A stretch of DNA of 30,434 bases from an uncultured Methanosarcinales archaeon (GTDB lineage Archaea; Nanobdellota; Nanobdellia; Woesearchaeales; CAZYIM01), in contig CAZYIM010000026.1 of the NCBI GenBank assembly GCA_964647565.1, positions 10,762 to 41,195 of the forward strand, read 5' to 3'. Numbering within the stretch: position 1 is the stretch's first letter; every line of letters starts with the position of its first letter. The notes beneath the pieces were generated by a model, which saw nothing but the letters and a program-made list of their open reading frames with translations, was not told the DNA's origin and ran no database searches. Both the position numbers and the translations under genes were made by a program. Shown here piece by piece: positions 744 through 25,623 of this stretch.

Positions 744-2588
744 CTACTTTCCAAGGAATTTCTCCAATATTTTTAGCATTCCTTCCTTATTCCTAGTATA
801 TTTGAGATATTTTGCCAACTTTTCCCTATGGAATACGTCTTTTATCCATGTTGCGAAGTGGTTGGTTTCTGCAGTTACATAGTGGTTGAAGTCTTCTTCA
901 GAAATAGTCTTTATATATTCCTTAAGGTCACTCAAGCTTTTCAAGCTGGTTCCGTCTCTTAATTGAAAATATTTTTCAGGCTCAATTATTATTTCTTCTT
1001 CTTTCTCTTTTTCTTCTTTTTCTTCTTTTTTAGATGCTTTCTTTTTATGTATGGCGTAAGGTATGAGGATCAAGATTAAGGCTAATATGGCTGCACACAG
1101 GAGGACGATGCTGGTTAAGGCTGTGCCTAATAGCTTTTCTGCTAAAGGAATTGGGCTGGGTTTTTCAACAAATGGCATCAACACAACTTCAAATGGGCTG
1201 TCCGCTTCCCAACTTGCTCCTTTGTACGTTGCAATTGCTTGGAATGGGTGGCTGCCAGGTCGAGTATCTTTAGGCAGTTTTAGTTTTGCAACAAAGACAG
1301 TTTTGGTCTCCAGAGCCACTACTTTTTGTCCTTCAGCAAGGATGTTGCCATCTTCGTCGAGGATGGAATAGCTGACATTGATAGTGTCTGTCACTGCGAA
1401 CAAGCCCAGATTTTTAAGCTCTATTAACGCTTTTACATCTTCTTCCTTGCTGACCTCTTTTTTCATAGTATCGACCTTCAAAGAAAGATGTTCTAGCAGC
1501 TCTTCTGTCAGAATTGGTGCAGAGTAGATACATTGTTTGGACTCGACAGGTTTTTCTTCATCAGTTTCACATAGATTCATCTCAGTGCAATTTCTTGTCT
1601 GAGTCTCATTCTCAAAGCAGGAAGACCAGGGATTACATTCCCACACTTCTGTACAGAAAATGGTCATTCCGCCTCCACCTCCGCCTCCACCGCCGCCTCC
1701 AGTTGTGGTAGGTGGAGCAGGGGGTACATATTCTTCATATTCTCCAAATCCTGTGAATATACTGAAATTATCTACAATAGCCCAGATGAAGTTGTTATAG
1801 GTGTCAACACCTGAAAAAGGGATTACTACCCAGCGAGAAAAGTCCTCATTCCATTTGTACATTTTTAATGATGATTCTTTTATGCTTCTGGCTGTAATAT
1901 CTGAATCGTCGTAATAAAATAGTGCGATTTCAGCCACAAAAAGTTTGTTTAGGGTTTGTTGGGCTGCAGTTATATTATAGAAATAACCTAAATTAATAAG
2001 ATCGAAATCACTGAAATTATGTGGGAATGTATCAGCTCTCGTTATTGCGAACGAGACATTTGCATTTTCTTTGGTTTTTATACGTATATTCATATTTATT
2101 TCTTCAGTTAGATTGATAAGTGTTACGTTGCCCGCAAGAACAGGATAGGGGCCTATTCCTGCCGGGAATCCGCAGTTATCTGTGGAATCCTGGAAAAAGT
2201 AGTATGTGGGGTTTTGGCCTGGCGGAACTGGCAGCATTATATGGAAATCTGCACTTTCATTAGGGAATACGCTGCTGTTTTTGAGGATTTTGAAGACAAA
2301 AATAGGTTCTCCTAATGAATTCTTAAGTAGACCCATGGCATTTGAGCTGTTTTCGGGATTCAGGGTGATGCTTGGTAAGGTGAGGTTTCTATTGCCAATA
2401 TCCCATGTCATGGTGTTGTTGGCCTTAAATGTGGCTACACCAGAGACGCGATCTCGGATATAATAAAATAGCTGGGAAAAGTTGTAATAGGCGTCCAGTT
2501 CTGCACCTGTAGCCTCCGATAAGGAGTCCAGATAAAGATGACCTGGTAGAGTGGGGTCTGCTGTCTGGTATAGATGTTCTGAGGACAT
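744..2588 (-). CDS. Single-pass cell-surface protein, 5'-truncated: surface domain, PGF-pre-PGF-like domain, poly-Gly linker, Cys-rich module, Ig-like domain, TM helix, cytoplasmic DUF5752-like domain
   Basis: ESSLKMYKWNEDFSRW...IWAIVDNFSIFTGFG; a 12-Gly run; CTEVWECNPWSSC...QTRNC...C...KPVESKQC; hydrophobic LLGTALTSIVLLCAAILALILILIPYAI followed by KKK; C-terminal PEKYFQLRDG..LKSL.DL...F.HYV....NHFATWIKDVF. No signal peptide, and the frame stays open upstream (…INKTELYAT-M) into the junction at ~2604-2616. Confidence 0.8.
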   Translation of the reverse strand: MSSEHLYQTADPTLPGHLYLDSLSEATGAELDAYYNFSQLFYYIRDRVSGVATFKANNTMTWDIGNRNLTLPSITLNPENSSNAMGLLKNSLGEPIFVFKILKNSSVFPNESADFHIMLPVPPGQNPTYYFFQDSTDNCGFPAGIGPYPVLAGNVTLINLTEEINMNIRIKTKENANVSFAITRADTFPHNFSDFDLINLGYFYNITAAQQTLNKLFVAEIALFYYDDSDITARSIKESSLKMYKWNEDFSRWVVIPFSGVDTYNNFIWAIVDNFSIFTGFGEYEEYVPPAPPTTTGGGGGGGGGGGMTIFCTEVWECNPWSSCFENETQTRNCTEMNLCETDEEKPVESKQCIYSAPILTEELLEHLSLKVDTMKKEVSKEEDVKALIELKNLGLFAVTDTINVSYSILDEDGNILAEGQKVVALETKTVFVAKLKLPKDTRPGSHPFQAIATYKGASWEADSPFEVVLMPFVEKPSPIPLAEKLLGTALTSIVLLCAAILALILILIPYAIHKKKASKKEEKEEKEKEEEIIIEPEKYFQLRDGTSLKSLSDLKEYIKTISEEDFNHYVTAETNHFATWIKDVFHREKLAKYLKYTRNKEGMLKILEKFLGK

Positions 2589-2607
2589 GGTTGCGTAAAG
2601 CTCTGTT

Positions 2608-3255
2608 TTGTTGATGCACTTTAATAATGAAAGTGCGTTTGGTGAGAATAGTACTTATGTATATGACTGGAGTGGGACTGGGAATAATGGTACAGTGTAT
2701 GGGGGAACTATTCCGAATGAATTGGCAAAATTTGGCAAGTCTTTCAACTACTCTGCAAGTGATGATTATATCACAGTTGATGATCATGCATCTATCAAGA
2801 ATATGGACGAGATGACTGTGGCCGTATGGATATATCCTTACAATACCGACGGGGTAGGATCTGATACTCAAACCATAGTACAAAAAGACAATCTTAATAA
2901 CGGAAATGAAAGGCCGTGGATATTGGGCTGGTGGAGTAACAATAACCCTGTGTTTGGAATGACAAATTCAAGCAATGGTTTCGTTAAAGCAGTATCTTCT
3001 GTGGACGCAAATCAGGATAGCTGGAACCACATGGTAGGCAGGCTAAATAGCACACATCTAACAATTTTCTTGAATGGATTTGAACGAGGAAGTGTACCTA
3101 GAACGAACCTAGATGCCACATCTAATACAGATCCTGTAACATTAGGAAGGCTTAGTTATACAGATGCCTGGCCGTTCTTAGGTTTAATTGATGAAGTGGC
3201 GATCTGGAATCGTTCTTTGAGTGAAGCAGAGATTGAGGCTTTGTATAATTATTCT
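2608..3255 (+). other. LamG/concanavalin A-like domain 1 of the giant protein (further copies at ~5700-6365 and ~14150-14840)
   Basis: Motifs L.HFNNES.FGEN...DWSG.GNNG, T..AW, W.H..G, Y.NG, F.G.IDEVA.WNRSLS..E..ALYNY in all three copies. Confidence 0.85.
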
Positions 3256-6200
3256 AAGACTAAGTTTTATCCTGTTTTTCAGAATGAGACTTTGGGTGAT
3301 GGTAATTATGTTTGGAATGTGTTGGCTTATGATAATGCTACGAGTTCTCAGAGTGATTGGGATAGTAATCGTTCGTTGTTGGTGGATGGTTCTGCTCCGG
3401 TTATTAATAGTAAGGGTGTTAATGTGAGTTCTGTTAGTCCTGGTGCTGGTGTTTGTATTAATGCTAGTGTGACTGAGAGTTTGTCTTCGGTTGATGCTGT
3501 TTGGGCGACTGTTACTCAGAGTAATGGTAGTGTGTTTAATACTAGTGAGTTTAGTGATACTGGTGATTGTGCTGGTGCGGGTGGTGATGGTTGGTATAGT
3601 GTGAATGTGAGTGTGGGTGATGTTGGCGGTACTTTTTATTATAATGTTACTTATGTTAATAATAGTGTTGGGGTTGTTGGTAGTAATTCTAGCGCGGTGA
3701 ATATTACTGTAAATACTGTTGATGATGCTCCTAATGTTTCCCTTTCATCTCCTGATGATGCCTCATTTGATGCTGATGGGAATGTTATCTTTAATTGTAC
3801 TGTGACAGATGACAATAGTATAGGTAACATAACTTTATATGGCAACTGGTCAGGTAGTTGGATTGCCAACAAGACGGTTGACTTTGGTAGTAATGGTGAG
3901 CATTGGGATACAGGCGATTTAGGAAATACATACGCTGTAACATTTGCTGATCTGGATAATGACGGTAAGAAGAATGATGTTATTGTTGCTAGTTATGATT
4001 CTGGACTTCCTGAAAATTATATTAGAGCGTATTGGCCTAATGGTTCGGTTAGATGGGATGAAAGTCCTGATAAGAAGAGTGCCGGTTTTGTCCGTGCTGT
4101 TCATGCAATGGATGTGGATGGGGATGGTTTTGATAATGATATCATAGTTGAGTTTAGTAGCGGTCTTTTTGCTGTTTATAACGAGAGTGGAAATAATGTT
4201 TCTGAATCTCCATATCCTCAGAACTGGATGGTTACGATGGGTGAGGCTGATTTGGATGGAAATGGAGTTTATGATTTAGTAACAATTGGGAGGGAGTTTA
4301 CTGGTGAGGTCAGGGCATATAACACTACTGATAATGGGTCGTCTTGGAATAATGTTTGGAATAAAACTGGAATGACTTATGCGATGGCTGAGATAGAAGG
4401 ATTTGATGCTGATTCTGATAATAAGACAGATGAGATGTTGTTGGTGGGTTTTGCTGAGATTTATTGTGTGGAGGCGAGGAACGGCTCAGTTATTTGGTCT
4501 AATACCTCAACTGAGATTCCTAGTTTGGCATCTGCTGCTGCCGCTGTTTTAGATTTGAATCATGATGGGAACAGAAATGAGGTTGTTTATAGTGCAGGCT
4601 ATTTCGCCCCCTATAATTTGTATGCAGTTGAGGGTGATACAGGTGATGTTATTTGGACTTCAGACATCCCCATGCATAGTAGTGCTCAGTATAATAGGGA
4701 GTTGATTCCTGCTGATTTAGATAATGATGGTTGGATTGATGATTTTGTAGTATCAAATTATTACATTCATGGTGTTAACAATGATTCTACTGTACTTTGG
4801 AATTTTACAACACCCACTGCATATATATATTCTGTTGCTGTTGGAGATTTGACAGGAGACGATGAAGTTGAGATTGTTGCAGGTGGGGATCAAGGAATTG
4901 TGTGGGTGTTAAACAGGACAGGTGCTTTGTTGTGGAGTAAGGATCTTGGCCAGGGCGATATTGGAACTGCTCTAGGAAAAGGTGAGGCAATTTCAATTGC
5001 TGACTTTAATGATGATGGAATTAATGATTTTGCTGTTGCGACTCTTAATGGTTTTGTGAATGTGTTTTCCCTGGTCACAAGCAATGTGACTGTTTCTTTC
5101 AATGTAACTGGTATTTCAGATGGGACTCATAGCTGGAACTGTTTGGCTTATGATAATAACAGCCAGAGTGATTGGGGCGATACTAACAATACGTTGACTG
5201 TGGATTCAACTGCTCCGGTTATTAATAGTAAGGGTGTTAATGTGAGTTCTGTTAGTCCTGGTGCTGGTGTTTGTATTAATGCTAGTGTGACTGAGAGTTT
5301 GTCTTCGGTTGATGCTGTTTGGGCGACTGTTACTCAGAGTAATGGTAGTGTGTTTAATACTAGTGAGTTTAGTGATACTGGTGATTGTGCTGGTGCGGGT
5401 GGTGATGGTTGGTATAGTGTGAATGTGAGTGTGGGTGATGTTGGCGGTACTTTTTATTATAATGTTACTTATGTTAATAATTCTCTGGGCTTGCTTGGCA
5501 GTAATTCGAGTGTTGTGAGTATTTCTGTTGATGCTGCCCCTAATACGACTTTGGTAACGCCGGCTAATGGGGCTGGTCTGACTTCTACGACTGTTAGGTT
5601 CATATCTAATGTTACTGATGGTAATAATGTTGTTAATGCCACACTCTATACTAATGAGACTAGTTGGTCTGCTAAGGAGACTAGGTGGAATGGTGAGATT
5701 GCTTACAATGACACGGGTCTTGTTTTCCTTGCGCATTTTAATAATGAGTCTTTGTTTGGTGAGAATGATACTTATGTATATGACTGGAGTGGGACTGGGA
5801 ATAACGGAACCTCTTATGTGAATAACAGTGATGGAAGTGTAAGAGGTCCAAATGCAACAGGCAAGTTTGGAGGCTCCTTTAGGTTTGATGGTAATGATTA
5901 CATAAATGCAGGAAAGGATGCTAGTTTAAATGTTGGTGGTGGGAATTTCACATTTGCAGCATGGGCAAAATTGTATTCAAATTCATCTGATAGTGAAATT
6001 GTTGTCAAAGGAGATCTTGGACAAGCTATAGATCTGCGTTATGATTTTGATGAAGACTCATGGCAATTCACTGTCAGTGCTGGCGGCTGGCAATATGCAA
6101 AATATTTACAGGAATCTCCTGTGATAAATACCTGGTATCATGTGGTAGGCATACGTAACGGAAGTACAATTAAAGTATATGTTAATGGCGTTGAAGGTAA

Positions 6201-9200
6201 CACAGTTGATACAGTTGGAACAGTGGCAAACCTCGTAACCTATAACCTTGTAATTGGACGTATAGGTGATACGGCAGATAGATACTTTAATGGTACAATA
6301 GATGAGGTTGCAGTCTGGAACCGCTCCCTGTCTGCCTCTGAGATTATGGCTCTTTATAACTACACCAAGACCAAGTTCTATCCAGTTTTCCAGAATGAGA
6401 CCTTGAGTGAGGCTGATTATGTTTGGAATGTGTTGGCTTATGATAATAATAGTCAAAGTGACTGGGATACCAACAACTCCTTTACTGTTTTAGACACAAT
6501 CAACCCTTCCATAAGCAACCTGGCGATCAATACAAGCCTGGTAAAGAACCAGAGCTTTGCCAAGCTCAATGCCTCGATAACAGATAATATAGGTGCTATA
6601 AATAGGGCGACATTCACTGTAAATAATTCAGTAGCAGCCGCGAACTATACAGCCATAGATAACTATCCTGAGTTCTATTACAACTATCAATGTAATGCAT
6701 CCGCCACCATACAATGGAGCCATGCCTATGCCAATGATAGCGCGGGTAACAATGACTCCAACCTAAACTTTGGCCTGAACTTTGTATGTGACGCAGACAG
6801 GCCAGTCATCAACAATGATGGCAGCAATACTACGAGTGTGGTCGTTGGCTCAAAGGCCTGCCTCTCAATAAATGTGACAGATAATCTGGTGGTTGATGCC
6901 AGCTCAGTGATTGCTCAGGTTTACAACACATCAGATTGGCTTAACCTTTCGATGAGCAATGCTTCTTCGAATTGCGGAAGTGCAGGCGGTTCTGTCTTTA
7001 CTGTTGAGCTGACCCTTAATGCAGGCGGCACCTGGAACTATTCTAAGGTATATGCATCTGATACTGCAGGCAATTCCCAATCATATGATTTCAATGACAG
7101 GACAATCTCAGCAGGAGAATTGGTCACCCCTACCAACCCTGCATCTTATATATCTGTGGATAGGGACGGGGTTAATGCTTCTGTGGCAGATAGCGCCCTG
7201 CTTGTGGCCAAGCTTAGCAATGGGACGAGTGGAGTGACAGTGACCTTCAAGGCTAATCTGACAGATCCTATCATTGCAGACCAGACCAACCTGACCCTGG
7301 ACACTGCTGTGACCAATGCAACAGGTTATGCCAGCATAACCTGGTCAGGCAATGATTCTCTTGGTGAGATGTATGCAGGCAATTACACCTGGTGGCCAGA
7401 GGCCACAGGATACAATCTTAACGGTACGAAGATCATATATCTTTATGGAGGCATGAATCTTACATTCAGGTATACGACCACTGATCCAAACACCAACTAT
7501 ACTGTTGGAAACACCATAACATTTGACACCCTGCTTGACTCAAAGGGCCCTGAGTCCAGGGGCCAGCTCAACAGCACCTACAGCGGTAATGTTTCCCTTA
7601 TACTGACCAATCCTCTCGGCTCGAACACCACCTTGGTACTTATAGACCCTGGCCCTGATGATGCTCCAAGAAGGGGGACCGCAGCTTCGAAGAAAGGAGA
7701 AGGAACTTCAAAGAATGAAGTAAAGCTTGTTGTTGAGGAGAAGCTTGCTGTTGTTGAGGATAGGAGGGCGCAGGTTGAGGCTTCTTCGACTAATGATTAT
7801 TATGCTCCTGATGGTAGTATTGGTGGTACTTGGGCTCAGGTTGCTGATGCTGATCAGGCTCCTGATGATACTCCTGATACTGATGATATTGATAATGCTA
7901 AGGAGTTGTTTACTTATGGTTTTTCGGGTTGGCCTGCTGGTGTTACTGTTAATGATGTTTGGTTGATGTTGAGGTGGCAGATTAGTGCTACTGGTGATGA
8001 TGATTTGGAGTTGAAGTATAAGTTGACTTCGGGTGGTACTTGGTTGGATTTGGATGGTACTACTTTTGCTTCTGATGATGCTGGTGTGTTTACTGCTAAT
8101 AGGTCTGTTGGTGCTTATGCTACTCAGGCTTATAAGATTACTTCTGGTTTGTCTTTGGCTAATTTGGATGATTTGTATTTGGGTGTGAATGCTGATAAGG
8201 ATGCTGGAGGTGATAATGATAATGCTGATATTGATGCTATTTGGTTGAGGTTGAATTATACAGTTCCTGATGCCAGCCCGAATGTTTCTAGCTTGGATTA
8301 TCCTGGTGATGGTATTTCTTTGGAGCCTGGTTTGGTTGATTTTAATTTCAGTGCTTCAGATGACTCTAAGATTTCGAATTGTTCGTTGTGGGCTAATTTT
8401 TCAGGTACCTGGGCCAGGAATGTGACTGTGTTAAACCCGACGAATAATAGTGAGGTTAATTTTACTGTTAATGTTTCTCTTGGAAATTATATCTGGAATG
8501 TTCAATGCTTTGATAATGCTACAACACCACAGGGTGACTGGTATGATAGCAATTATAGTGTTATTGTTTCCTGGTTTAAGCCTACTGTTCTTGATGTGAG
8601 TGTTGTTCCAAGTGCTGGTGTGAATGGGACTGTCCTGAATATCTCTGCCAATGTCACTGACGTTTATGGCTTGGGTGTTGTCAAGGCCCTGCTGGAATAC
8701 CCAAACGGTACGAATTTTATCAATGTTACCCTCGATAATAGCAGCGGCGGCACTATATATTATAATGAAACTTATGTTATTGATACGAATGAGGTCTGGG
8801 GTAATTTCACTGTCACTGTCTGGACGAATAATTCCAAGAACGTGATCAACCAGAGTGAGAGCGTCCAGTTTATTCCTTATTGGAATGTTTCTCAGAATAA
8901 GAGTATTACAGTTGATGGTGATGCCACTGACTGGAGCAATATGGCTAATTTAACTGACTTGCTTGGGGATAGTCTGGAGTATAATGGTTTTGTTCAGGTA
9001 GCAACCGGATATCGACATGGTTGTGCCATCCGGTTTAATGGTAGTGCTTATTGTTGGGGTTTGAGTGGTGAGGGTCAGGTTGGATATGGAGGTATATCCA
9101 CTCAGGGACTCCCTGTTGCTGTTAACATAGTTAATAATAATTTTAGCTTAATATCTGTAGGAAAATATCATTCTTGTGGTGTTCATGTGAATGGTAGTGC

Positions 9201-12200
9201 TTATTGTTGGGGTTTGAGTGGTGAGGGTCAGGTTGGATATGGGGGTATTGAGAGCCAATTGACTCCTATTGCTGTTAATATTGCTGTTAATAATTTCTCT
9301 GATATTGATGCGGGAGGCGACCATACTTGTGCTCTTCATGTGAATGGTTCTGCTTATTGTTGGGGTGAGGGCCTGTATGGTAAGCTTGGTAATGGGGATG
9401 AGGGCAATCGGACTGTTCCAACTCAAGTTAACTATGCCCCTAATAATTGGACAACCATTTCAGGAGGCGCTTGGCAGCATACATGTGCTCTTCCTGTTAA
9501 TGGTTCTGCTTATTGTTGGGGAAGAGGTTTGTATGGTGTGCTTGGTGATGGAGGGACAGTTCAACAAAATACTCCTGTTGCTGTTAGTATTGGTGTTAAT
9601 AATTGGTCATCTATCTCTGCAGCTAAGGTCCATACTTGCGGCGTCCACATTAATGGTAGTGCTTATTGTTGGGGTGTTGGCACGGATGGCGAGCTTGGTT
9701 ATGGCGGTACTAGTGCTGCTGAGAACCTTCCGCTTGCTGTGAACTTTTCTCCTAATAATTGGACTGCTATCTACGCTAGCGACGAGCATACCTGCGGCGT
9801 TGTGCCTAATGGTTCTGCTTATTGTTGGGGTAATGGGAGTTATGGTGCGCTTGGATATGGGGGTAATGACAGTCAATTTGTCCCCATTTCTGTTAATAAG
9901 ATCCCTAATAACTGGAGTGTTTTATCTCAGGATGATGGAGAGTTTTTTTCTTGTGGTATCTTGTATAATGGTACTCTTTACTGTTGGGGTGAAGCAGGTA
10001 CTTCTAAGAGAACCGGGTTAAATTCCATGACTGATGTGTTTGTTCCTACTCAAGTAGTCTTTGATTATAGCCAGCCTATTACTGAGTTTGATTTGAAAAC
10101 AGTTTCTGTTACAAACAACGAAACACGTATTTTTGGATTACTTATTGATGGGGATGGACTTGTTGATGTTTCAAATGGGTTTGAGTATTATCGTATATAT
10201 CTCTCTACTTCTTCTGGTGGCAATAGTTCTAGTCCTGAGGGGAATTCTTTGCCGTTTGCGTATGATTATCGTGTTCAGGTGAATGGCAGTGTTTGTTATG
10301 TGTATAATGTTAGTTTTGATAATATGAGTAGTTGTAGTTTTGCGAATAGTGGTGGTGTTTTGGAGTTGTCTGTTTCGTTGGAGGATTTGGGTGCTTCGAC
10401 TGGTGATGTTTGGAATGTTAGTTTTGAGACTGCGAATTCAACTGCGCGTTATGATCTTGCTCCGGATAGTGCTTCTTTTGTGCGGTTTCCTTTGACGGGT
10501 TCGTTTGATTTTGGTGTTCCTTTGGTTAGTAGTGTGAGTGTTGTTCCTGGTATTGGTGTGAATGGTAGCGTGTTGAATGTTTCTGCTGTTGTTACAGATG
10601 ATAATACTGTTAGCATTGTTAAGGCAATGCTTAACTATCCAAATGGAAGCAATTTTGTTAATGTTAGTTTGGATAATACTGGTGGTGGCAGTGTGTATTA
10701 TAATGCGACTTATGCCTTGGATAATTTGGGTGTCTGGGGTAATTTGACTGCAACGATTTATGCTACTGATACTGGTGGTTATATCAATCAGAGTGAGAGC
10801 GCTCAGTTTATTCCTTATTGGAATGTGAGCCAGAATGGGAGTATTACTTTGGATGGTGCTGTTGGTGATTGGAGCACGCTTGCTAAACTTTCAGAGCCAT
10901 CAAGTGGAGATGCTGCGTCTTCTTATTCATTAAATTGGTCGTATAATTGGACATCACCTGAAAACCGGCATGATATTGCGTATGATGTTTTTGAGGATTC
11001 AAACGGTTCTGTGTATGTGGTTGGTTATGGTTCTAATACTTCGGGGAACGGTAATGCGAGGGATTGGTTAGTACAGAAACTGAATAGTGATAATAGTTTG
11101 AACTGGTCGTATAATTGGAGTTCGTCTGCCTTTCAAAATGATGAGGCGTATGGTGTTGCTGTGGATTCGAATGGTTTTGTGTATGTGGCAGGTTACGGCA
11201 AGAATGTTGTGGGGCAAGGCAATACTCCTGATTGGGTGGTTCAGAAGTTGAATTCTGATGGAGGGTTGAATTGGAGTTATAACTGGAGCTCGCCTGGAAG
11301 TAATTGGGATATTGTGGAGAGTGTTGCGGTTGATTCGAGTGGTTTTGTTTATGCTGCAGGCCGTGGCATGAATGCTTCTGGTAATGGTATTGCTTATGAT
11401 TGGTTGGTTCAGAAGTTGAATTCTGATGGTAGTTTGAATTGGTCTTATAATTGGACCTCTGCATGGGAATTCGGAGATGATGAACCGTATGGTGTTGCTG
11501 TTGATGATTCTGGTTTTGTGTATGTTGCTGGTTATGGCATTAATGCTTCGGGGAGTGGCAATGCTAATGATTGGTTGGTTCAGAAGTTGAATTCTGAGGG
11601 CTCATTGTGGTGGAGTTATAACTGGAGTACAGCAGGATCTAACACCGACACAGCAGAGGGTGTTGCTGTGAATTCTAGTGGTTTTGTCTATGTTGTTGGT
11701 AATGGTTTTAATGCTTCGGGGAGCGGCAATACCAATGATTGGGTGGTGCAGAAGCTTTCGATTGGTGGTACTATTGACTTGAAGGCTGTTTCTGTCTCTA
11801 ACAATGATTCTTATTTGTTTGGTTTGGTTGAGGTTGGGGGTAGTGTTGATGCTTCTGGTGCTGATGATTATTATCGTATGTATATCTCTACCACTAGTTC
11901 TGGTAATAGTACGTCTCCTGAAGGCAATTCTTTGCCGTTCCCATATGATTATCGTGTTCAAATAAATGGCAGTACTTGTTATGTGTATAATACGAGCTTT
12001 GTTAATATGAGCAGCTGTAGTTTTGCCAGCAGCAGTTCTTATCTTGAGTTTAGTTTTAATTTTTCTGATCTTGGTTTGAGTGTTAATGATACTGTTAATA
12101 TCACCTTTGAGACTGCTAACTCTACTACGGATGGGTTTGATTTGGCTCCTGATTATGCTTCTTTTGTGAAGTATACTATCAAAGAGGTTGATTTGGCTGC

Positions 12201-15200
12201 TACTGATGATGCGCCTACTACTAACTTAGTTTCGCCTTCAACAGCAACTTTTGATTCTGATGGAAATGTTATCTTTAATTGTACTGTGACAGATAACTAC
12301 GGGATAGCTAACATCACCCTCTACGGCAACTGGTCAGGAAGTTGGACAAAAAACATTACGATTGATTATGGTCAAAATGGTGTACATTGGAGTACAAGTG
12401 ATATTGGTACAGTGTTTAATGTTAAATTTGCTGATCTCAATAATGATAGTATCATAGATACCCTGCTTTCGGATGCAACAAATTCCCCTCCTGGAGAAAG
12501 AGTGATGGCATATTACTTCAACGGAAGTTCCGGATGGAACTATACGTCTGACAGAGCAAAGGCATTTTTCATAGGAGATGTTGATGGCGACAGTGACAAT
12601 GATGTGTTTGCTTTGGACCAGAGAGGATTCACTATCCTGAATAATACTGGTGGGCTCATAGATAACGACATATTGAATCTCCCTATAGTGGCCACTTTAG
12701 CAGTGACTGACATGGACAATGACAGCGTGTATGATTTATTGGCTATAGGTGATTCCAGTAATAGATTTGTTTATGTCTTCAATGCTACTACCTATGATAA
12801 TTGGGAAAACGTATATAATATTACATTTCCAGACAATACGCAAGATTACCCTACTGAACTCCTTTTTGCTGATATAGATGGGGATGGAATAAAGGATGAA
12901 CTGCTTGTGGCAGATAGTGATAACGGACTTTATGTAATGAATGCGACAGACGGAACGTTTATCTGGAATTCAACAAGCAGCAGAAGAGCCAAAGCAATGG
13001 TATTGGTGGACTTGAATGATGATGGGGATGAGGAGATTGTCTTTGGAGGTCAGAAATGGGATGACAAACAAGTATTTGCATATTTCAAGAACTACACGCA
13101 GTATTGGAATATTAGTATTTCCTTGACACAGAATTGGATATATGAGATTGATACGGCTGATCTGGACAATGATGGAAAAACAGATGAGCTTGTTATTGGT
13201 ACACAGGATGGAGATATCTACGCTTACGACGAAACAGGCAGTTTTATGTGGAATTTTACAGGGCCTTCAAACCTAATGCTCAGCATTGCTGTCGGTGACC
13301 TTGATAATGATGGTGAGGATGAGATTGCGGCTGGAGGAGATGATCATGTCCTTTACATAATAGATAGAAATGGTAATTCCCTGTGGAACTATAGTACTGC
13401 TGGTGATATTGGAGCAGATACATTTGGATTCGGTGCAATTGATATCGCAGACTTAAATCAGGATGGTGTTAATGATATTGCAGTAGCTGATCAAGATGGG
13501 TATGTATATTTGATTACAGTGCCGACAAACGATACAATTGCATCGTATAATGTGGCAGGTTTATCAGATGGAAACTATGTCTGGAACTGCTTGGCTTATG
13601 ATAACGCAAGCCAGACTGATTGGGCTAATAGCAACAATACGTTGACTGTTGACAGTTCTGCTCCGGTTATTAATAGTAAGGGTATTAATGTCAGTTCTGC
13701 AGATCCTGGTGATACTGTCTGCATTAATGCTAGTGTGACTGAGAGTTTGTCTTCGGTTGATGCTGTTTGGGCAACTATCACTCAGAGCAATGGCACTGTT
13801 ACTAACACTTCGGAGTTTAGTGATACTGGTGATTGTGCTGGAGTTGGTAGTGACGGGTGGTATAGTGTGAATGTGAATGTGGGAACTACTGGTGGCACTT
13901 TCTATTATAATGTCACTTATGTTAATAACAGTGTTGGATTGCTTGGCAGCGATACAACTCCTGCCAGTATTGCTGTGGATGCTGCCCCTAATACTAATTT
14001 GGTTTCGCCTGTTAATGGAGCTGGTCAGAGCTCTTCTGTTGTTAGGTTTGTTTCTAATGTTACTGATGGTAATAATGTTGTTAATGCCACACTCTATACT
14101 AATGAGACGACTTGGTCTGCGAAGGAGACGCGGTGGAATGGTGAGGTTGCTTATAATGATACTGGTTTGGTATTGTTGATGCACTTTAACAATGAAAGCG
14201 CGTTTGGTGAGAATGATACTGTAGTGTTTGATTGGAGCGGAAATGGAAATAATGGAACCATGGGTGCTGGAAACGAATTTATTAATAGTGCTGGCCGTTT
14301 TGGTGGGAGCTTGAAATTGGATGGTGTGAGTGATTATGTTGATGTGGGAAATACTAGCAGTCTAAAAATTAATAGCTCGATTACCATGAGTGCTTGGTTT
14401 AAATTTGATGAACTACCTAGCGTATTGGGAAGACAAGGATATATCATGGGGAAAGGGCGCTCTTTGTCAGGTTCGGGAGTATATGGGTATAGTCTTGTTA
14501 TTCATACAGATGATGATGCATATTGGGATATTTATGATTCAAGTGGGCTAAGGGATTATCAACCTTGCAATCTTCCAACACTTCAGAAAGATGTGTGGTA
14601 TCATATCGGGGTTACTTGGGATGGAACTAATGATGCTAATGGGAAAAGATGTTATCTTAATGGAAATTCCACTGATAACAATACAGTGACAATAAAAAAT
14701 ATTAGTATGCCTGATATGAATTTCTATATAGGCAAAGATAAGGTTCGTGAAGATTACGATTTCAATGGAAGCATTGATGAAGTAGCAGTCTGGAACAGAT
14801 CACTTTCCCATGCAGAAATGAAAGCTCTCTATAACTACACCAAGACTACATATCAGCCTGTTTTCCAGAATAGGACAGTTGCGGATGGTAATTATGTTTG
14901 GAATGTGTTGGCTTATGATAATAACAGCCAGAGTGATTGGGATACCAATAATTCGTTGACTGTGGATGCTTCATTTCCTTACTTTTCCAATAATGCCACT
15001 ACTGGTGTCTATAAGAAAAACACCAACTACACAGCCAATGTGACTGTGAATGATAATAGCCTGGACTATGTATGGATCGAGAGTAATCATACAGGAACCA
15101 TGAATAATTACAGTGTTACAGACATATCTGGAATGGAATATAATTTCAGCACATCATTGAACATATCAGCTGGCAGGGGCAACAAGGTCTGCCATAGGTT

Positions 15201-17760
15201 CTTTGCCAATGATACCGCAGGCAATATCAACAACTCAGGAACCTATGAGTGCTTCTTTGTATTGAACACAGCACCTACATATGACCAGAGCCTGACAGCG
15301 CAGACTGTGAATGTTAGTGATTCCTCTTTTGTCTATGACATCAACTGCACTGAGATTGACGGTGATACTCTGACCTATTACGATAATACCACTCTCTTTG
15401 ACATCAACACCACTTCAGGAGTTATAAACCACAGTCTCTCAGAGTCTGACGCGGGGTCGTATAATGTTCAGATAACCTGTGGAGATGGCTATGATAACAC
15501 CAGCCAGACCTTCACTTACACTATATATGACAATGTGGTTCCAACCACAGTCCTGGTCAGTCCTGCTGACACAACTATAACTGTGTTAGGAGGTGTGATG
15601 ACTACCTTTAATTGTTCAGCAACAGACAGCTATGGCCTGAAGAATGTCAGCCTCTACATCACCGACAGCGATAACCAGAGCTTCAGCTTTAACTCTTCAT
15701 CAAGCCTGTCAGGAACAAGTGATTGGGCCAACTGGACATATAACATGACAATTGGCAACTACACATGGAATTGCCTGGTCTACGATACCTACAACAACTC
15801 AGACTGGGCTGTAAACAGGAGCTATATAGTGCAGCGTCCTGTGAAACACTGGAACAATACTTATTTGACAAACGGGAAGCAACCAGGAGTTTGGAATATC
15901 AGTACAAGGGCAACGGCAAAATGGTTCTACACAGTAAGCCAGGTAAGAGCTAGGAACTTCACGTTAAATAGTTCACCTGGAAATGCTGCGCCAACAAACC
16001 CAACACCCATAATAAATTCAAGCGACGGTACGAACTACTCAAGCCAGGATCTGAATTGCTTAGCAACTCTGGATGATGATGACAACGATACTATGAATGT
16101 GTCTGTAAGGTGGTTTGTTGGAGGGATCCTGAATATTACAGCACACTTCAACAACAGTTATGCGAATGGAACTGACTTCAATGCAACGCTGGGATCTGGT
16201 AACACATCTGCAGGCCAATCCTGGAGCTGTTCAATGAGAGTGTATGACCAGAATGGCAGCAGTGATTGGGGAAACTCAAGTTATTTGCTTGTGAAGGCAG
16301 AGGACGTGGGGCCGCCAAATGTTTCCAGTCTTGACTATCCTGGCAATGACAGTTTGATATTTAATCTTCCTATTGATTTCAACTTTACTGTCAGCGACGA
16401 TGTTCAGCTAGTTAACTGTAGCTTATTTGCTAATTTTTCACAAGTATGGGAAATAAACAAGACTATCTATCCGCCAACTAATGTTGAAGCGATGTACAAC
16501 ATGACAGTCAGTCCGCCAGATGGTAATTATATATGGAACGTGGTCTGTTATGACGCTGCATCTCCTCCCAATTTGGGTTGGTTTGGCTCTAATTACACAG
16601 TCGAGGTTGATGGAGCAGCCCCTACTTGGGCAAATCAGGAGAACGATGCGGATTGGAACACGACAACATTTGACAATATCACTTTCAATATCACTTTCAC
16701 AGACAAGACCCCTGATACATACACCCTAAGTATCTTCGACAGAATTTGCGATGCTCCTGGTTGTTTTAACGAATGGACCAACTATACAGGAACCTATACT
16801 TCAGGTGAGAAAATCAGCAGGGTTATTCAGATCCGTGCCAAGGGTGGGGAAGTCTTCAAATGGAGATGGTATGCAAATGATAGTGCAGGAAGGCTTCTAA
16901 AAACGCAATACTGGTTTGAATATGCTCATGGAGCTCCTCCTCCGCCTGATGAATATAATTCAACCTGGGATGGAGAGAACTTCACCTTCTATTGGGAAAA
17001 CATAACAAATGCCACTCAGTACAGGATTTACATGTTCGATGATCTGAATGATGATTACTGGGATTACCAGAACATATCTGGATCAACAAATACATTTATG
17101 CATGAAAATGCATCCCAATATGAACGTATGTTTTATAAGCTTGCCTGTGTAAATGATGAAGGAGAAACCAATACATCGGTTTTAATGGGCAACTGGAGAT
17201 ACACCTTAGAAAGAGAACCGGGAGGACTTAACAAGAACTGGATATCCCTGCCAATAAATAACTCTGATTACGAAAGAGCAAGCGACTTGCTTTCAGCCCT
17301 GTCGTATGCTACTGCAATCACATACTGGAATGCAAGTACGCAACAGGCTGTTGGCTGTACCTTGGCCTACTGTCCCACATCATGTGAACCTACCGCATGT
17401 GACTTCTACCTAAAGCCTGGACAGGCTTATGAGGTGGACTTGAATTCAACAGCACCAGAACAGCTTAACTGGACGCTTAATGGAATTGTTTTTGGTAGGA
17501 CCAATATTTCCCTTGATCGCAATGTTTCAGGCGCAAACTGGATTGCTGTACCTGCAGACACAGAACTAAACTGGTCCTCAGATCTTGTGACTAGTATCGG
17601 TGCAAGTAAAGTTGTGGCAGTAAACAAATGGAACGCCTCGACTCAGGCATCCATGGGATGGGTAAATCTTAGAGGCGGAAGAGGCATTAATTTCCCGCTC
17701 ATAGGCCGTGAGGGCTATGAAGTCTGGGTAAATGACTCTGTGGATTGGGAGCAGACGTGA
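2608..17760 (+). CDS. Giant multidomain cell-surface adhesin-like glycoprotein (at least 5050 aa, 5'-truncated)
   Basis: 15.1-kb uninterrupted ORF. LamG/ConA-like domains (IDEVAxWNRSLS), FG-GAP/VCBS DxDxDG repeats, RCC1 repeats, SBBP-like repeats, many Ig-like domains and very dense N-x-S/T sequons. It starts mid-domain (LMHFNNESAFGEN; compare GLVLLMHFNNESAFGEN at ~14164) with an in-frame TAA at 2596-2598 and no signal peptide. Confidence 0.92.
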   Translation: MLMHFNNESAFGENSTYVYDWSGTGNNGTVYGGTIPNELAKFGKSFNYSASDDYITVDDHASIKNMDEMTVAVWIYPYNTDGVGSDTQTIVQKDNLNNGNERPWILGWWSNNNPVFGMTNSSNGFVKAVSSVDANQDSWNHMVGRLNSTHLTIFLNGFERGSVPRTNLDATSNTDPVTLGRLSYTDAWPFLGLIDEVAIWNRSLSEAEIEALYNYSKTKFYPVFQNETLGDGNYVWNVLAYDNATSSQSDWDSNRSLLVDGSAPVINSKGVNVSSVSPGAGVCINASVTESLSSVDAVWATVTQSNGSVFNTSEFSDTGDCAGAGGDGWYSVNVSVGDVGGTFYYNVTYVNNSVGVVGSNSSAVNITVNTVDDAPNVSLSSPDDASFDADGNVIFNCTVTDDNSIGNITLYGNWSGSWIANKTVDFGSNGEHWDTGDLGNTYAVTFADLDNDGKKNDVIVASYDSGLPENYIRAYWPNGSVRWDESPDKKSAGFVRAVHAMDVDGDGFDNDIIVEFSSGLFAVYNESGNNVSESPYPQNWMVTMGEADLDGNGVYDLVTIGREFTGEVRAYNTTDNGSSWNNVWNKTGMTYAMAEIEGFDADSDNKTDEMLLVGFAEIYCVEARNGSVIWSNTSTEIPSLASAAAAVLDLNHDGNRNEVVYSAGYFAPYNLYAVEGDTGDVIWTSDIPMHSSAQYNRELIPADLDNDGWIDDFVVSNYYIHGVNNDSTVLWNFTTPTAYIYSVAVGDLTGDDEVEIVAGGDQGIVWVLNRTGALLWSKDLGQGDIGTALGKGEAISIADFNDDGINDFAVATLNGFVNVFSLVTSNVTVSFNVTGISDGTHSWNCLAYDNNSQSDWGDTNNTLTVDSTAPVINSKGVNVSSVSPGAGVCINASVTESLSSVDAVWATVTQSNGSVFNTSEFSDTGDCAGAGGDGWYSVNVSVGDVGGTFYYNVTYVNNSLGLLGSNSSVVSISVDAAPNTTLVTPANGAGLTSTTVRFISNVTDGNNVVNATLYTNETSWSAKETRWNGEIAYNDTGLVFLAHFNNESLFGENDTYVYDWSGTGNNGTSYVNNSDGSVRGPNATGKFGGSFRFDGNDYINAGKDASLNVGGGNFTFAAWAKLYSNSSDSEIVVKGDLGQAIDLRYDFDEDSWQFTVSAGGWQYAKYLQESPVINTWYHVVGIRNGSTIKVYVNGVEGNTVDTVGTVANLVTYNLVIGRIGDTADRYFNGTIDEVAVWNRSLSASEIMALYNYTKTKFYPVFQNETLSEADYVWNVLAYDNNSQSDWDTNNSFTVLDTINPSISNLAINTSLVKNQSFAKLNASITDNIGAINRATFTVNNSVAAANYTAIDNYPEFYYNYQCNASATIQWSHAYANDSAGNNDSNLNFGLNFVCDADRPVINNDGSNTTSVVVGSKACLSINVTDNLVVDASSVIAQVYNTSDWLNLSMSNASSNCGSAGGSVFTVELTLNAGGTWNYSKVYASDTAGNSQSYDFNDRTISAGELVTPTNPASYISVDRDGVNASVADSALLVAKLSNGTSGVTVTFKANLTDPIIADQTNLTLDTAVTNATGYASITWSGNDSLGEMYAGNYTWWPEATGYNLNGTKIIYLYGGMNLTFRYTTTDPNTNYTVGNTITFDTLLDSKGPESRGQLNSTYSGNVSLILTNPLGSNTTLVLIDPGPDDAPRRGTAASKKGEGTSKNEVKLVVEEKLAVVEDRRAQVEASSTNDYYAPDGSIGGTWAQVADADQAPDDTPDTDDIDNAKELFTYGFSGWPAGVTVNDVWLMLRWQISATGDDDLELKYKLTSGGTWLDLDGTTFASDDAGVFTANRSVGAYATQAYKITSGLSLANLDDLYLGVNADKDAGGDNDNADIDAIWLRLNYTVPDASPNVSSLDYPGDGISLEPGLVDFNFSASDDSKISNCSLWANFSGTWARNVTVLNPTNNSEVNFTVNVSLGNYIWNVQCFDNATTPQGDWYDSNYSVIVSWFKPTVLDVSVVPSAGVNGTVLNISANVTDVYGLGVVKALLEYPNGTNFINVTLDNSSGGTIYYNETYVIDTNEVWGNFTVTVWTNNSKNVINQSESVQFIPYWNVSQNKSITVDGDATDWSNMANLTDLLGDSLEYNGFVQVATGYRHGCAIRFNGSAYCWGLSGEGQVGYGGISTQGLPVAVNIVNNNFSLISVGKYHSCGVHVNGSAYCWGLSGEGQVGYGGIESQLTPIAVNIAVNNFSDIDAGGDHTCALHVNGSAYCWGEGLYGKLGNGDEGNRTVPTQVNYAPNNWTTISGGAWQHTCALPVNGSAYCWGRGLYGVLGDGGTVQQNTPVAVSIGVNNWSSISAAKVHTCGVHINGSAYCWGVGTDGELGYGGTSAAENLPLAVNFSPNNWTAIYASDEHTCGVVPNGSAYCWGNGSYGALGYGGNDSQFVPISVNKIPNNWSVLSQDDGEFFSCGILYNGTLYCWGEAGTSKRTGLNSMTDVFVPTQVVFDYSQPITEFDLKTVSVTNNETRIFGLLIDGDGLVDVSNGFEYYRIYLSTSSGGNSSSPEGNSLPFAYDYRVQVNGSVCYVYNVSFDNMSSCSFANSGGVLELSVSLEDLGASTGDVWNVSFETANSTARYDLAPDSASFVRFPLTGSFDFGVPLVSSVSVVPGIGVNGSVLNVSAVVTDDNTVSIVKAMLNYPNGSNFVNVSLDNTGGGSVYYNATYALDNLGVWGNLTATIYATDTGGYINQSESAQFIPYWNVSQNGSITLDGAVGDWSTLAKLSEPSSGDAASSYSLNWSYNWTSPENRHDIAYDVFEDSNGSVYVVGYGSNTSGNGNARDWLVQKLNSDNSLNWSYNWSSSAFQNDEAYGVAVDSNGFVYVAGYGKNVVGQGNTPDWVVQKLNSDGGLNWSYNWSSPGSNWDIVESVAVDSSGFVYAAGRGMNASGNGIAYDWLVQKLNSDGSLNWSYNWTSAWEFGDDEPYGVAVDDSGFVYVAGYGINASGSGNANDWLVQKLNSEGSLWWSYNWSTAGSNTDTAEGVAVNSSGFVYVVGNGFNASGSGNTNDWVVQKLSIGGTIDLKAVSVSNNDSYLFGLVEVGGSVDASGADDYYRMYISTTSSGNSTSPEGNSLPFPYDYRVQINGSTCYVYNTSFVNMSSCSFASSSSYLEFSFNFSDLGLSVNDTVNITFETANSTTDGFDLAPDYASFVKYTIKEVDLAATDDAPTTNLVSPSTATFDSDGNVIFNCTVTDNYGIANITLYGNWSGSWTKNITIDYGQNGVHWSTSDIGTVFNVKFADLNNDSIIDTLLSDATNSPPGERVMAYYFNGSSGWNYTSDRAKAFFIGDVDGDSDNDVFALDQRGFTILNNTGGLIDNDILNLPIVATLAVTDMDNDSVYDLLAIGDSSNRFVYVFNATTYDNWENVYNITFPDNTQDYPTELLFADIDGDGIKDELLVADSDNGLYVMNATDGTFIWNSTSSRRAKAMVLVDLNDDGDEEIVFGGQKWDDKQVFAYFKNYTQYWNISISLTQNWIYEIDTADLDNDGKTDELVIGTQDGDIYAYDETGSFMWNFTGPSNLMLSIAVGDLDNDGEDEIAAGGDDHVLYIIDRNGNSLWNYSTAGDIGADTFGFGAIDIADLNQDGVNDIAVADQDGYVYLITVPTNDTIASYNVAGLSDGNYVWNCLAYDNASQTDWANSNNTLTVDSSAPVINSKGINVSSADPGDTVCINASVTESLSSVDAVWATITQSNGTVTNTSEFSDTGDCAGVGSDGWYSVNVNVGTTGGTFYYNVTYVNNSVGLLGSDTTPASIAVDAAPNTNLVSPVNGAGQSSSVVRFVSNVTDGNNVVNATLYTNETTWSAKETRWNGEVAYNDTGLVLLMHFNNESAFGENDTVVFDWSGNGNNGTMGAGNEFINSAGRFGGSLKLDGVSDYVDVGNTSSLKINSSITMSAWFKFDELPSVLGRQGYIMGKGRSLSGSGVYGYSLVIHTDDDAYWDIYDSSGLRDYQPCNLPTLQKDVWYHIGVTWDGTNDANGKRCYLNGNSTDNNTVTIKNISMPDMNFYIGKDKVREDYDFNGSIDEVAVWNRSLSHAEMKALYNYTKTTYQPVFQNRTVADGNYVWNVLAYDNNSQSDWDTNNSLTVDASFPYFSNNATTGVYKKNTNYTANVTVNDNSLDYVWIESNHTGTMNNYSVTDISGMEYNFSTSLNISAGRGNKVCHRFFANDTAGNINNSGTYECFFVLNTAPTYDQSLTAQTVNVSDSSFVYDINCTEIDGDTLTYYDNTTLFDINTTSGVINHSLSESDAGSYNVQITCGDGYDNTSQTFTYTIYDNVVPTTVLVSPADTTITVLGGVMTTFNCSATDSYGLKNVSLYITDSDNQSFSFNSSSSLSGTSDWANWTYNMTIGNYTWNCLVYDTYNNSDWAVNRSYIVQRPVKHWNNTYLTNGKQPGVWNISTRATAKWFYTVSQVRARNFTLNSSPGNAAPTNPTPIINSSDGTNYSSQDLNCLATLDDDDNDTMNVSVRWFVGGILNITAHFNNSYANGTDFNATLGSGNTSAGQSWSCSMRVYDQNGSSDWGNSSYLLVKAEDVGPPNVSSLDYPGNDSLIFNLPIDFNFTVSDDVQLVNCSLFANFSQVWEINKTIYPPTNVEAMYNMTVSPPDGNYIWNVVCYDAASPPNLGWFGSNYTVEVDGAAPTWANQENDADWNTTTFDNITFNITFTDKTPDTYTLSIFDRICDAPGCFNEWTNYTGTYTSGEKISRVIQIRAKGGEVFKWRWYANDSAGRLLKTQYWFEYAHGAPPPPDEYNSTWDGENFTFYWENITNATQYRIYMFDDLNDDYWDYQNISGSTNTFMHENASQYERMFYKLACVNDEGETNTSVLMGNWRYTLEREPGGLNKNWISLPINNSDYERASDLLSALSYATAITYWNASTQQAVGCTLAYCPTSCEPTACDFYLKPGQAYEVDLNSTAPEQLNWTLNGIVFGRTNISLDRNVSGANWIAVPADTELNWSSDLVTSIGASKVVAVNKWNASTQASMGWVNLRGGRGINFPLIGREGYEVWVNDSVDWEQT
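3392..3663 (+). repeat. 272-bp direct repeat, copy 1 (Ig-like module APVINSKG...YYNVTYVNN)
   Basis: Base-for-base identical to 5210-5481 (offset 1818). A diverged third copy lies at ~13658-13929. Confidence 0.95.
3895..5070 (+). other. FG-GAP/VCBS-type beta-propeller 1 (second copy at ~12375-13520)
   Basis: Seven DxDxDG-like Ca-binding loops (ADLDNDGK, MDVDGDGF, ADLDGNGV, FDADSDNK, LDLNHDGN, ADLDNDGW, GDLTGDDE) plus ADFNDDGI. Confidence 0.85.
5210..5481 (+). repeat. 272-bp direct repeat, copy 2
   Basis: Identical to 3392-3663. Confidence 0.95.
8985..10065 (+). repeat. RCC1-like seven-bladed beta-propeller (7 x ~51 aa)
   Basis: Seven repeats of G..H.C....NGSAYCWG....G.LG.G.......P..V. A 53-bp stretch is identical between blades 1 and 2 (9037-9089 = 9190-9242). 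Confidence 0.9.
10927..11760 (+). repeat. SBBP/NHL-like beta-propeller repeats (5 x ~56 aa, ~168-bp period)
   Basis: Five copies of LNWSYNW.S.....D.A.GVAVDS.GFVYV.G.G.N.SG.G...DW.VQKLNS. Confidence 0.85.
13658..13929 (+). repeat. Diverged third copy of the 272-bp module
   Basis: APVINSKGINVSSADPG...YYNVTYVNN, with long identical patches against copies 1 and 2 interspersed with substitutions. Confidence 0.9.
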
Positions 17761-17762
17761 GA

Positions 17763-20419: not shown

Positions 20420-20421
20420 CC

Positions 20422-25483: not shown

Positions 25484-25516
25484 ACTATGCCTCCGTAGCA
25501 TAGTAGCTATTGCGGC
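25484..25516 (+). repeat. 33-bp direct repeat of the tRNA-Thr leader and positions 1-28 (5' tRNA fragment)
   Basis: ACTATGCCTCCGTAGCATAGTAGCTATTGCGGC is identical to 25619-25651. Confidence 0.95.
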
Positions 25517-25623
25517 CAAGGGTTTCGTTCCTTGACCCCGAAGTGCGACATTCGGTTGCTTACGCAACCTCAGTCCCACAAGCTCGCTTCGCGCGCTAAT
25601 AACATCAAACAAACCAATACTAT

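Follow-up and report, generated by a model that had tools for sequence, protein, structure and literature searches.

DPANN archaea need contact with other cells, and giant surface proteins, which are almost uncharacterised, are prime candidates for making it. The DNA analysed here (the window) is a 30,434 nt stretch of contig CAZYIM010000026.1 (positions 10,762–41,195 of the forward strand; assembly GCA_964647565.1). It contains a giant open reading frame (ORF) at 2608–17760 on the + strand, a single frame that is open for 15 kb and encodes 5050 aa. The original prediction, made from the sequence, described this gene as an adhesin with conserved immunoglobulin-like (Ig-like) chassis domains that carry exchangeable head domains, where the conserved flanks (arms) of a head would promote its in-frame exchange. 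The question raised by this locus is whether it represents a cassette-swapping system. The comparisons below make it probable that the gene encodes a DPANN adhesin-type surface protein with heads in split domains, a segmental duplication and a stalk that evolves in concert. There is no sign of a dedicated switching system in this genome, and the analysis of the giant gene reveals no new kind of variation machinery.

Heads nested in split Ig-like domains

Pfam analysis of the 5050 aa protein shows three Laminin_G_3 (LamG) domains (aa ~1–215, 1036–1252 and 3852–4077), two FG-GAP propellers (aa ~431–820 and 3258–3640), an RCC1 propeller (aa 2122–2480) and an SBBP-type propeller (aa 2774–3057). 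LamG heads match Laminin_G_3 (PF13385) with 170.6 and 85.6 bits (cut-off 27.6). FG-GAP copy a matches FG-GAP with 24.2 bits (cut-off 22.1) and copy c matches FG-GAP_3 with 54.1 bits (cut-off 26.9); many propellers are found among 1868 library matches of the FG-GAP unit. The RCC1 head has 194.1 bits to PF25390 (cut-off 150) and six RCC1 (PF00415) repeats, and the SBBP head matches PF06739 with an E value of 1.2e-19. Coordinates of all features are in Table 1.

A hidden Markov model (HMM) of the first chassis domain (chassis 1) was built solely from its three uninterrupted copies (8272–8568, 15538–15831 and 16309–16608). The halves of all four complete split units match this profile in a complementary manner, with N-halves at positions 2–59 and C-halves that extend from position 48, 53 or 57 to position 99. 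The exception is the LamG-c unit, with a C-side match from position 23 onwards. The LamG-a unit shows a C-half only, the ORF starting mid-domain. Because the half matches are complementary and to one profile, the domains split by LamG and those split by FG-GAP are homologous and are interrupted in one and the same loop, which within the window holds LamG, FG-GAP or nothing. The predicted interruption of host Ig-like domains is thus found in 4/4 complete units, and the coordinates agree.

It was also predicted that the two halves fold into one Ig domain. In an AlphaFold2 model of the Ig::LamG-b unit, the second of two runs and made with an alignment that included uninterrupted homologues, the halves have a predicted local distance difference test score (pLDDT) of 81–94 and strands as an Ig-like sandwich would have; the model as a whole has a mean pLDDT of 83.8 and a predicted template modelling score of 0.74. 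The first run (60 LamG units with mixed flanks) gave a pLDDT < 50 for the chassis halves and is uninformative on them. The LamG head is modelled at a pLDDT of about 90 in both runs. The best Foldseek matches of the LamG-b model are ConA-like lectin jelly-rolls (E about 1e-10); all matches of the second model are to the LamG head and none informs on the packing of the halves. When folded as two chains, the halves have an ipSAE of 0.53, and the best of three controls scores 0.00; runs share at least 95% of their contacts, and partner pLDDT is at least 74. The ipSAE mark is passed by 116 of 157 solved complexes and by 2 of 215 mismatched pairs, counts that apply only roughly here, as the halves were folded with alignments made for this analysis; 18 of the 157 solved complexes and both passing mismatched pairs pass at 0.60 or less. 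The two-chain pass may reflect the likeness of the halves to many solved Ig folds. Thus the predicted single fold agrees with the pLDDT over both halves, but two-chain support for it is weak.

The other two heads are in a second split domain, chassis 2. The flanks of the RCC1 propeller (aa 1992–2117 and 2494–2629) are 61–63% identical to those of the SBBP propeller (aa 2638–2763 and 3056–3191), and the propellers that these two copies of chassis 2 hold belong to different families. The head is located after ...DW...D[LVI][VI]GD and before [F]D[IL]..V[SA]L.N.

N-x-S/T sequons number 289 in the protein (57 per 1000 aa), compared with 2–9 per 1000 in the cytoplasmic enzymes of the window. It is probably a glycosylated adhesin-type surface protein from a Woesearchaeota-like DPANN archaeon. 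Three LamG lectin-type heads, two FG-GAP, one RCC1 and one SBBP propeller would each be looped out from a fixed beta-sandwich loop, and would project sideways from a rod of Ig-like domains.

Segmental duplication and the age of arms and heads

Self-BLAST of the whole protein gave the identity match only, and 100 aa chunks were used for self-comparison. Residues 361–1330 are colinear with residues 3184–4156, which represents one segmental duplication of a block with the order half-Ig, FG-GAP, half-Ig, D1, half-Ig, LamG, half-Ig. Residues 1–300 match residues 1040–1332 and 3856–4156. Since the duplication is colinear, the heads of the two blocks are not unrelated cassettes but pairs of diverged homologues that follow each other in a shared order. 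Amino acid identity between the blocks is 63–82% in the arms and D1, 37% between the FG-GAP heads (a and c) and 43% between the LamG heads (b and c), in keeping with the high head divergence first noticed.

Four exact matches had been assigned to chassis DNA. All are present and maximal: 3781–3810 = 12265–12294 (30 bp), 5605–5660 = 14053–14108 (56 bp), 3298–3336 = 14884–14922 (39 bp) and 2652–2687 = 5769–5804 (36 bp), but the last is within the N-terminus of the LamG head. The chassis DNA had been described as near-identical between copies. This holds for short perfect runs of 30–56 bp; overall, the arms of the two blocks are only 72–86% identical. The largest exact repeat is a perfect tract of 272 bp shared by D1-a and D1-b (3392–3663 = 5210–5481). 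It is sharply bordered, and its flanks are alike only at chance level in ungapped register. A perfect run of 34 bp is also shared by the C-arms of two unit types, one FG-GAP and one LamG (5143–5176 = 14908–14941). The longest perfect run is above expectation in 6/6 arm comparisons (P ≤ 0.0015; mismatches scattered within codon positions, 20,000 simulations per comparison), in an ungapped test that includes some out-of-register stretches.

Synonymous divergence is not equal in arms and heads. Nei-Gojobori proportions of synonymous differences in sliding windows of 40 codons are 0.23–0.45 in the arms and 0.65–0.9 in the heads. Where residues are identical, the codon is shared at 151/211 sites in the arms (72%) and at 101/213 in the heads (47%), and codon usage predicts 0.42–0.47; four-fold sites match at 67/101 and 26/83 positions, respectively (Fisher p 3.5e-6). 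Codon agreement in the heads is at the level predicted by gene-wide codon usage, and the heads are therefore synonymously saturated. The arms are clearly younger than the heads at synonymous sites, which points to recombination acting on the arms.

Divergence without recombination, i.e., a single block duplication after which stronger purifying selection on the stalk kept the arms alike, would give amino acid identities such as those observed (63–82% in arms, 37–43% in heads), and identity does fall gradually into the edges of the heads. However, the excess of identical synonymous codons in the arms is not explicable by protein constraint, and the sharply bordered 272 bp tract and the over-long perfect runs would be left unexplained. 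This explanation is disfavoured and is highly improbable. The youth of the arms, the 272 bp tract and the over-long runs instead point to stalk repeats that have undergone gene conversion over short tracts or have recombined unequally. The gene has probably grown by duplication of whole composite modules, of which one colinear block is now present twice; later short-tract gene conversion or unequal recombination among the stalk repeats has probably kept the arms alike, and the heads have meanwhile diverged to saturation.

Table 1. Features of the giant gene and its 5' junction (positions in the window)
Feature	Position	Strand	Basis
Suspect 5' junction	2589..2607	.	Homology start 2605, in-frame TAA, divergent ORF adjoining
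LamG-a head (Laminin_G_3), N-side chassis half missing	2608..3252	+	Pfam, chassis profile
C-half of Ig-like chassis after LamG-a	3265..3387	+	Profile positions 68-99
Scaffold Ig domain D1-a; 3392-3663 identical to D1-b	3361..3693	+	Self-comparison, exact repeats
N-half of Ig-like chassis before FG-GAP-a	3727..3882	+	Profile positions 2-59
FG-GAP beta-propeller head a	3898..5067	+	Pfam, library search
C-half of chassis after FG-GAP-a	5083..5205	+	Profile positions 57-99
Scaffold Ig domain D1-b	5179..5511	+	Self-comparison, exact repeats
N-half of chassis before LamG-b; contains 56-bp match to 14053-14108	5536..5688	+	Profile, exact repeats, AlphaFold2
LamG-b head	5713..6363	+	Pfam, AlphaFold2, Foldseek
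C-half of chassis after LamG-b	6376..6492	+	Profile, AlphaFold2, two-chain folding
Uninterrupted chassis domain U1	8272..8568	+	Profile; sub-threshold Big_7 match, 23 bits (cut-off 24.1)
Flank X: Ig-like domain and first strand (ITVDGDATDW) of chassis 2	8581..8958	+	Self-comparison, relatives
RCC1 propeller head in chassis 2	8971..10047	+	PF25390, 194 bits
Flank Y: rest of chassis 2, copy 1	10087..10494	+	Self-comparison, relatives
Flank X', 61% identical to X	10519..10896	+	Chunked self-comparison
SBBP-type propeller head in chassis 2	10927..11778	+	PF06739, E 1.2e-19
Flank Y', 63% identical to Y	11773..12180	+	Self-comparison, order-wide search
N-half of chassis before FG-GAP-c	12211..12366	+	Profile positions 7-58
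FG-GAP propeller head c	12379..13527	+	Pfam, self-comparison
C-half of chassis after FG-GAP-c	13531..13653	+	Profile positions 53-99
Scaffold Ig domain D1-c	13627..13959	+	Self-comparison
N-half of chassis before LamG-c	13984..14136	+	Profile positions 3-53
LamG-c head	14161..14838	+	Pfam, LamG-unit comparison
C-half of chassis after LamG-c	14851..14967	+	Chassis profile
Uninterrupted chassis domain U3	15538..15831	+	Chassis profile
Uninterrupted chassis domain U2	16309..16608	+	Chassis profile

Head exchange in relatives, in the genome and in populations

LamG units in which the head is preceded by about 60 aa and followed by 45–50 aa are abundant in giant ORFs of the order. A search with the LamG unit gave matches in 29/41 genomes, the source genome included, and 73 units were extracted. 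Five genomes (G022, G039, G032, G009 and G030) have Ig::LamG units with the chassis pattern found in the window, and five others (G035, G007, G025, G002 and G012) have a different Ig-like frame around LamG. The chassis pattern of the window is thereby present in several further families of the order. With the FG-GAP unit, a long match to the propeller is seen in 41 of the 150 best library proteins, several of which also carry LamG arrays. Half-profiles detect the N-half, an insert and the C-half of chassis 1 in the public proteins P0047, P0052 and P0070. The insert is LamG in three units of P0047 and in one unit of P0052, which at the same loop of another unit holds an unnamed insert of ~320 aa. 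In P0070 the insert, at residues 1653–1803 between halves at 1559–1601 and 1827–1865, is a DNRLRE domain (NF033679, 50.2 bits, cut-off 34).

Flank Y of chassis 2 has no match in a smaller set of loci and proteins; when this C-flank was sought across the order, it was present in 4/151 genomes, the source genome included. The loop of chassis 2 contains an RCC1 propeller in G023 and a PQQ_2-like propeller in G064. In G048 there are two copies, one with an orphan 206 aa domain (contig C103, L049) and one with no insert (contig C124, L046). These two are 95.6% identical over 434 nt of chassis, and also over 28 nt of the upstream arm, and differ by a head of ~600 nt and all downstream sequence. In either type of chassis, the head at the fixed loop differs from lineage to lineage, which supports head exchange as an evolutionary process; on these sequence comparisons, head exchange over evolutionary time is real. 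Recombination is its likely agent. Over long times the process that keeps the arms alike would, between paralogues and lineages, gain, lose or replace heads at the fixed loop.

Programmed or high-frequency cassette swapping is a stronger proposal, in which the arms drive frequent in-frame head exchange and produce changes in host attachment in the population that resemble phase variation. The younger arms, their perfect runs of 30–56 bp and the G048 pair with near-identical chassis, with and without a head, are in its favour, as is the swapping of binding domains between otherwise similar alleles described for RTX adhesins in the available part of 10.1101/2025.09.30.679566. Against it, the arms are far from identical and the two blocks carry homologous heads in an unchanged order. 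The chassis arms were sought elsewhere in the genome by tblastn with the whole protein in 100 aa chunks against the 86 contigs (86.9% complete). Outside of the gene there is no match to the chassis, D1 or LamG; the only outside matches are weak ones to FG-GAP, and matches to C-terminal domains in the two downstream genes. With no donor cassettes, intragenic exchange can only reorder, duplicate, delete or homogenise heads, and cannot add new ones.

Searches of other collections gave similar results. In JGI metagenome contigs, the exact 41 nt arm pattern is found in 0 stretches, and a protein-guided scan with D1 and the N-half gave 0 confirmed loci among 166 candidates. In a collection of 5.8 billion proteins, aa 946–1098 compared with proteins of 84–268 aa gave 0/30 candidates at E ≤ 1e-10; aa 1–1400 compared with giant proteins gave 26 proteins, with a best local identity of 42% and no orthologue. 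Neither comparison brought up a near-identical protein. Pfam finds no recombinase in the window, as first noted, and the genome has no match to the RVT_1 reverse transcriptase. A diversity-generating retroelement was also considered and is rejected, as RVT_1 is missing from the genome and mismatches between repeat copies are not adenine-specific.

Read-level data were in the form of Logan contigs. Of eight runs from two studies, four (X1–X4, depths 2–6) were compared for alternative heads between the arms. Contig depth along the gene extends over 30/30 bins in X1–X3 and 28/30 in X4, and the run that covers the gene best may be from the source sample; parts of the gene with no listed contig cover are left out of the interpretation. 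The 32 contig pieces listed (of 170, from the four runs and two studies) have 0 other letters. Contigs of 4/4 runs show no alternative head, variant letter, insertion or deletion, although a depth of 2–6 cannot reveal rare forms. One 391 nt contig of run X1 (depth 3.8) joins 5631–5768 to 2652–2904 across the shared 36 bp. This is what an unequal cross-over that duplicates 3117 bp in frame would give, and it resembles a product expected under cassette swapping, but it is ambiguous. The word size of Logan's index is 31 letters, and the contigs were presumably built with the same k (31). The 36 bp repeat is merely 5 bases above this word size, and the hybrid joint may therefore be a graph artefact. 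Taken with the searches above, these data make programmed cassette swapping very unlikely: different heads do occupy the same chassis in different proteins and genomes, but this genome shows no working exchange system.

Short motif matches followed by unlike sequence are present in a contig of run X4 at 2693 (LamG N-terminus) and in contigs of all four runs at 4709–4741 (FG-GAP blade). Further LamG or FG-GAP genes, or different organisms in the samples, are the probable source of these contigs.

A related process is conceivable, where the conserved split halves act as recombination substrates and DPANN populations gain, lose, duplicate and exchange heads in frame on ecological, not geological, time scales. 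Exchange would be among paralogues and co-existing strains, with the hybrid contig (5768 to 2652) and the G048 pair as snapshots of it. This is rather unlikely; if true, it would be an archaeal counterpart of the adhesin allele shuffling that tunes host attachment.

The 5' end, the host and known systems

The 5' end of the giant gene is suspect. LamG-unit homology begins at 2605, and there is an in-frame TAA at 2596–2598. A divergent ORF (744–2588, minus strand) starts at 2588, 20 nt from the giant ORF and head to head with it. Its product resembles a surface protein with a membrane anchor but is likewise without a signal peptide, and its only match among the 5.8 billion proteins is itself. 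A signal peptide and a transmembrane-like stretch were looked for in the giant ORF and neither was found. The genome has 13 further ORFs of 1500 aa or more, and 10 of these have an N-terminal hydrophobic, signal-like stretch (first 50 residues, by eye). A hydrophobic stretch that resembles a signal or an anchor is also found at the start of most of the 26 distant homologues, several of which have an 'RGQSSTEFL'-type start. LamG-array giants of 4444–7048 aa from related archaea (P0155, P0156, P0158, P0159 and P0163) have the start 'RGQ(S/T)(S/T).E(F/Y)L' followed by a hydrophobic stretch; this type of start is what we take to be an archaeal class III (pilin-like) signal. As the ORF starts mid-domain and has no signal peptide, it is 5'-truncated by a real deletion or is misjoined, and truncation is the most likely cause of the absent signal. 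For the head-to-head pair, a deletion would have removed the 5' ends of both ORFs. No sequon-rich ORF runs off a contig end of the genome, which places the missing 5' part outside the assembly.

These properties of the 5' end would fit an assembly artefact, i.e., repeats collapsed or misjoined in the metagenome-assembled genome, such that unit order, number and junctions, and above all the 5' end, are not real. A perfect 272 bp repeat is hard for short reads to bridge, and the Logan contigs are short and broken within the gene, with one hybrid joint. On the other hand, contigs of four runs from two studies match the gene, the frame is open for 15 kb and the nested units recur in independent genomes. 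An artefact would affect the order of the units and not the nested design, and is unlikely.

Several observations count against the account proposed at the outset. Support for packing of the two halves is indirect, with a weak complex score and a pLDDT < 50 for the halves of the first model. The run-length excess is partly inflated by insertions and deletions. The younger arms could also result from a recent duplication with replacement of both heads by heads of the same family, which is less parsimonious. The head-less copy in G048 is only 44 nt from a contig end. Without a signal peptide or anchor, this copy may be a pseudogene or a product of assembly. Ligand binding and location are deduced from the domain families, so that a location at the surface and adhesion to a host or substrate are putative. 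With these points included, a surface protein with nested heads, one duplicated block and a stalk in concerted evolution is still the probable explanation.

The genome carries archaeal small-subunit and large-subunit rRNA. The nearest relatives compared share only the order with it and have genome sizes of 0.6–2.3 Mb, and homologues of the giant protein bear NCBI names from Woese-, Pace- and Nanoarchaeota and are called LamG-like jellyroll proteins. The predicted DPANN cell fits all of these. The source genome is 2.68 Mb in 86 contigs (86.9% complete, 1.85% contamination), is the sole member of its family and genus among the genomes compared and exceeds in size all 27 size-listed relatives of the order (of about 150 searched). 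Pyruvate kinase (26831–28246) was tried as a taxonomic probe and is uninformative; the rRNA was taken instead. The only two confirmed relatives of this gene in the genome-contig scan are Bacteroidales records at 52% identity, and it may be of bacterial origin.

Downstream of the giant ORF there are three genes with N-terminal signal-like segments, two of which have Ig or cadherin-like matches. C-terminal modules of the giant protein recur in the three downstream genes: aa 4977–5047 at 42% identity (20189–20395, in ORF 19964–20419), aa 4450–4574 at 55–65% (20791–21150, in ORF 20392–22005) and aa 4241–4340 at 30–38% (18468–18773, in ORF 17745–19826). The '...RGGRGINF...' module ends both the giant protein and the small ORF 19964–20419. 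The giant protein and these three products may be parts of one surface assembly. Further downstream, a 33 bp perfect direct repeat (25484–25516 = 25619–25651) spans the 5' part of an 85 nt tRNA at 25624–25708 (Rfam, 51.2 bits), which has a four-base anticodon by ARAGORN; the upstream copy runs on into unrelated, GC-richer sequence. This region (25484–25708) may have arisen by duplication of part of the tRNA or be the scar of an integration, or the tRNA may be split or contain an intron.

Among known systems, pilE/pilS, vlsE and the MgPa repeats represent cassette-based antigenic variation, where the gene for a surface protein has variable segments that lie between conserved flanks. The giant gene has such flanks, but they are far from identical, no silent donors are found in the assembly and no population variants are seen in the four runs; the variable segments are whole same-family domains of 200–400 aa in a fixed order. 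Concerted evolution by intragenic or ectopic gene conversion is established for repeat-bearing surface protein genes. The CEACAM family is an example in the available part of PMC7042247. Here too, scaffold repeats are more similar than their age predicts, there are short, sharply bordered perfect tracts and the diversifying parts escape. The difference is that the escaping parts are whole domains nested in homogenised domains, which gives 'same frame, different head'. The young arms and old heads, with the differing heads in the same chassis of relatives, show how such proteins diversify.

Giant LamG/PKD-rich surface proteins are known in DPANN archaea, e.g., nanohaloarchaeal ones proposed for host contact in the accessible portion of PMC10266531. 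They share with the protein described here an archaeal source, a length of several thousand residues, and Ig-like and LamG domains. Nesting in split domains is not described in that portion. Pfam finds no VirB4/TraG-like ATPase domain in the giant protein, and the N-terminal signal of full-length relatives is absent from this copy.

Of the designs already known, the split domains in bacterial RTX adhesins come closest. In Aeromonas AhLap, Vibrio FrhA and others, ligand-binding domains bud from split Ig-like domains and define the binding region (PMC12077191, in the text available). The part of 10.1101/2025.09.30.679566 that is available describes alleles that keep their architecture with one binding domain down to 28–30% identity, and split domains that are interrupted either behind their first strand or ahead of their final two. 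The giant protein has its break mid-domain (profile positions ~53–59 of 99). Its chassis is of another family, weakly Big_7-like, and its heads are LamG_3 and three kinds of propeller, compared with CBM, vWFA or PA14 domains in these accounts of RTX adhesins. Pfam finds no RTX-repeat family in the whole protein or its last 386 aa; neither a type I secretion signal nor a retention module turned up, although no search was aimed at either and the N-terminus of the giant ORF is missing. With an archaeal rather than a Gram-negative bacterial host, no RTX-repeat family and a missing N-terminus, the giant protein is not an RTX adhesin. A narrow literature search found no account of split-domain display in archaeal proteins.

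The likeness to RTX adhesins, as far as the available texts describe them, is in the overall design: a half-megadalton rod of Ig-like extenders, several diverged head types in one protein, binding domains with adjacent N and C termini that emerge from a split beta-sandwich (both chassis here), and head swaps, which are reported between similar RTX alleles. It suggests a simple rule for locating binding domains in such proteins, i.e., whatever interrupts a stalk domain, and the nested units provide defined constructs for expression. In the archaeal protein encoded by the giant gene, split stalk domains display lectin and propeller heads in the manner of bacterial RTX adhesins.

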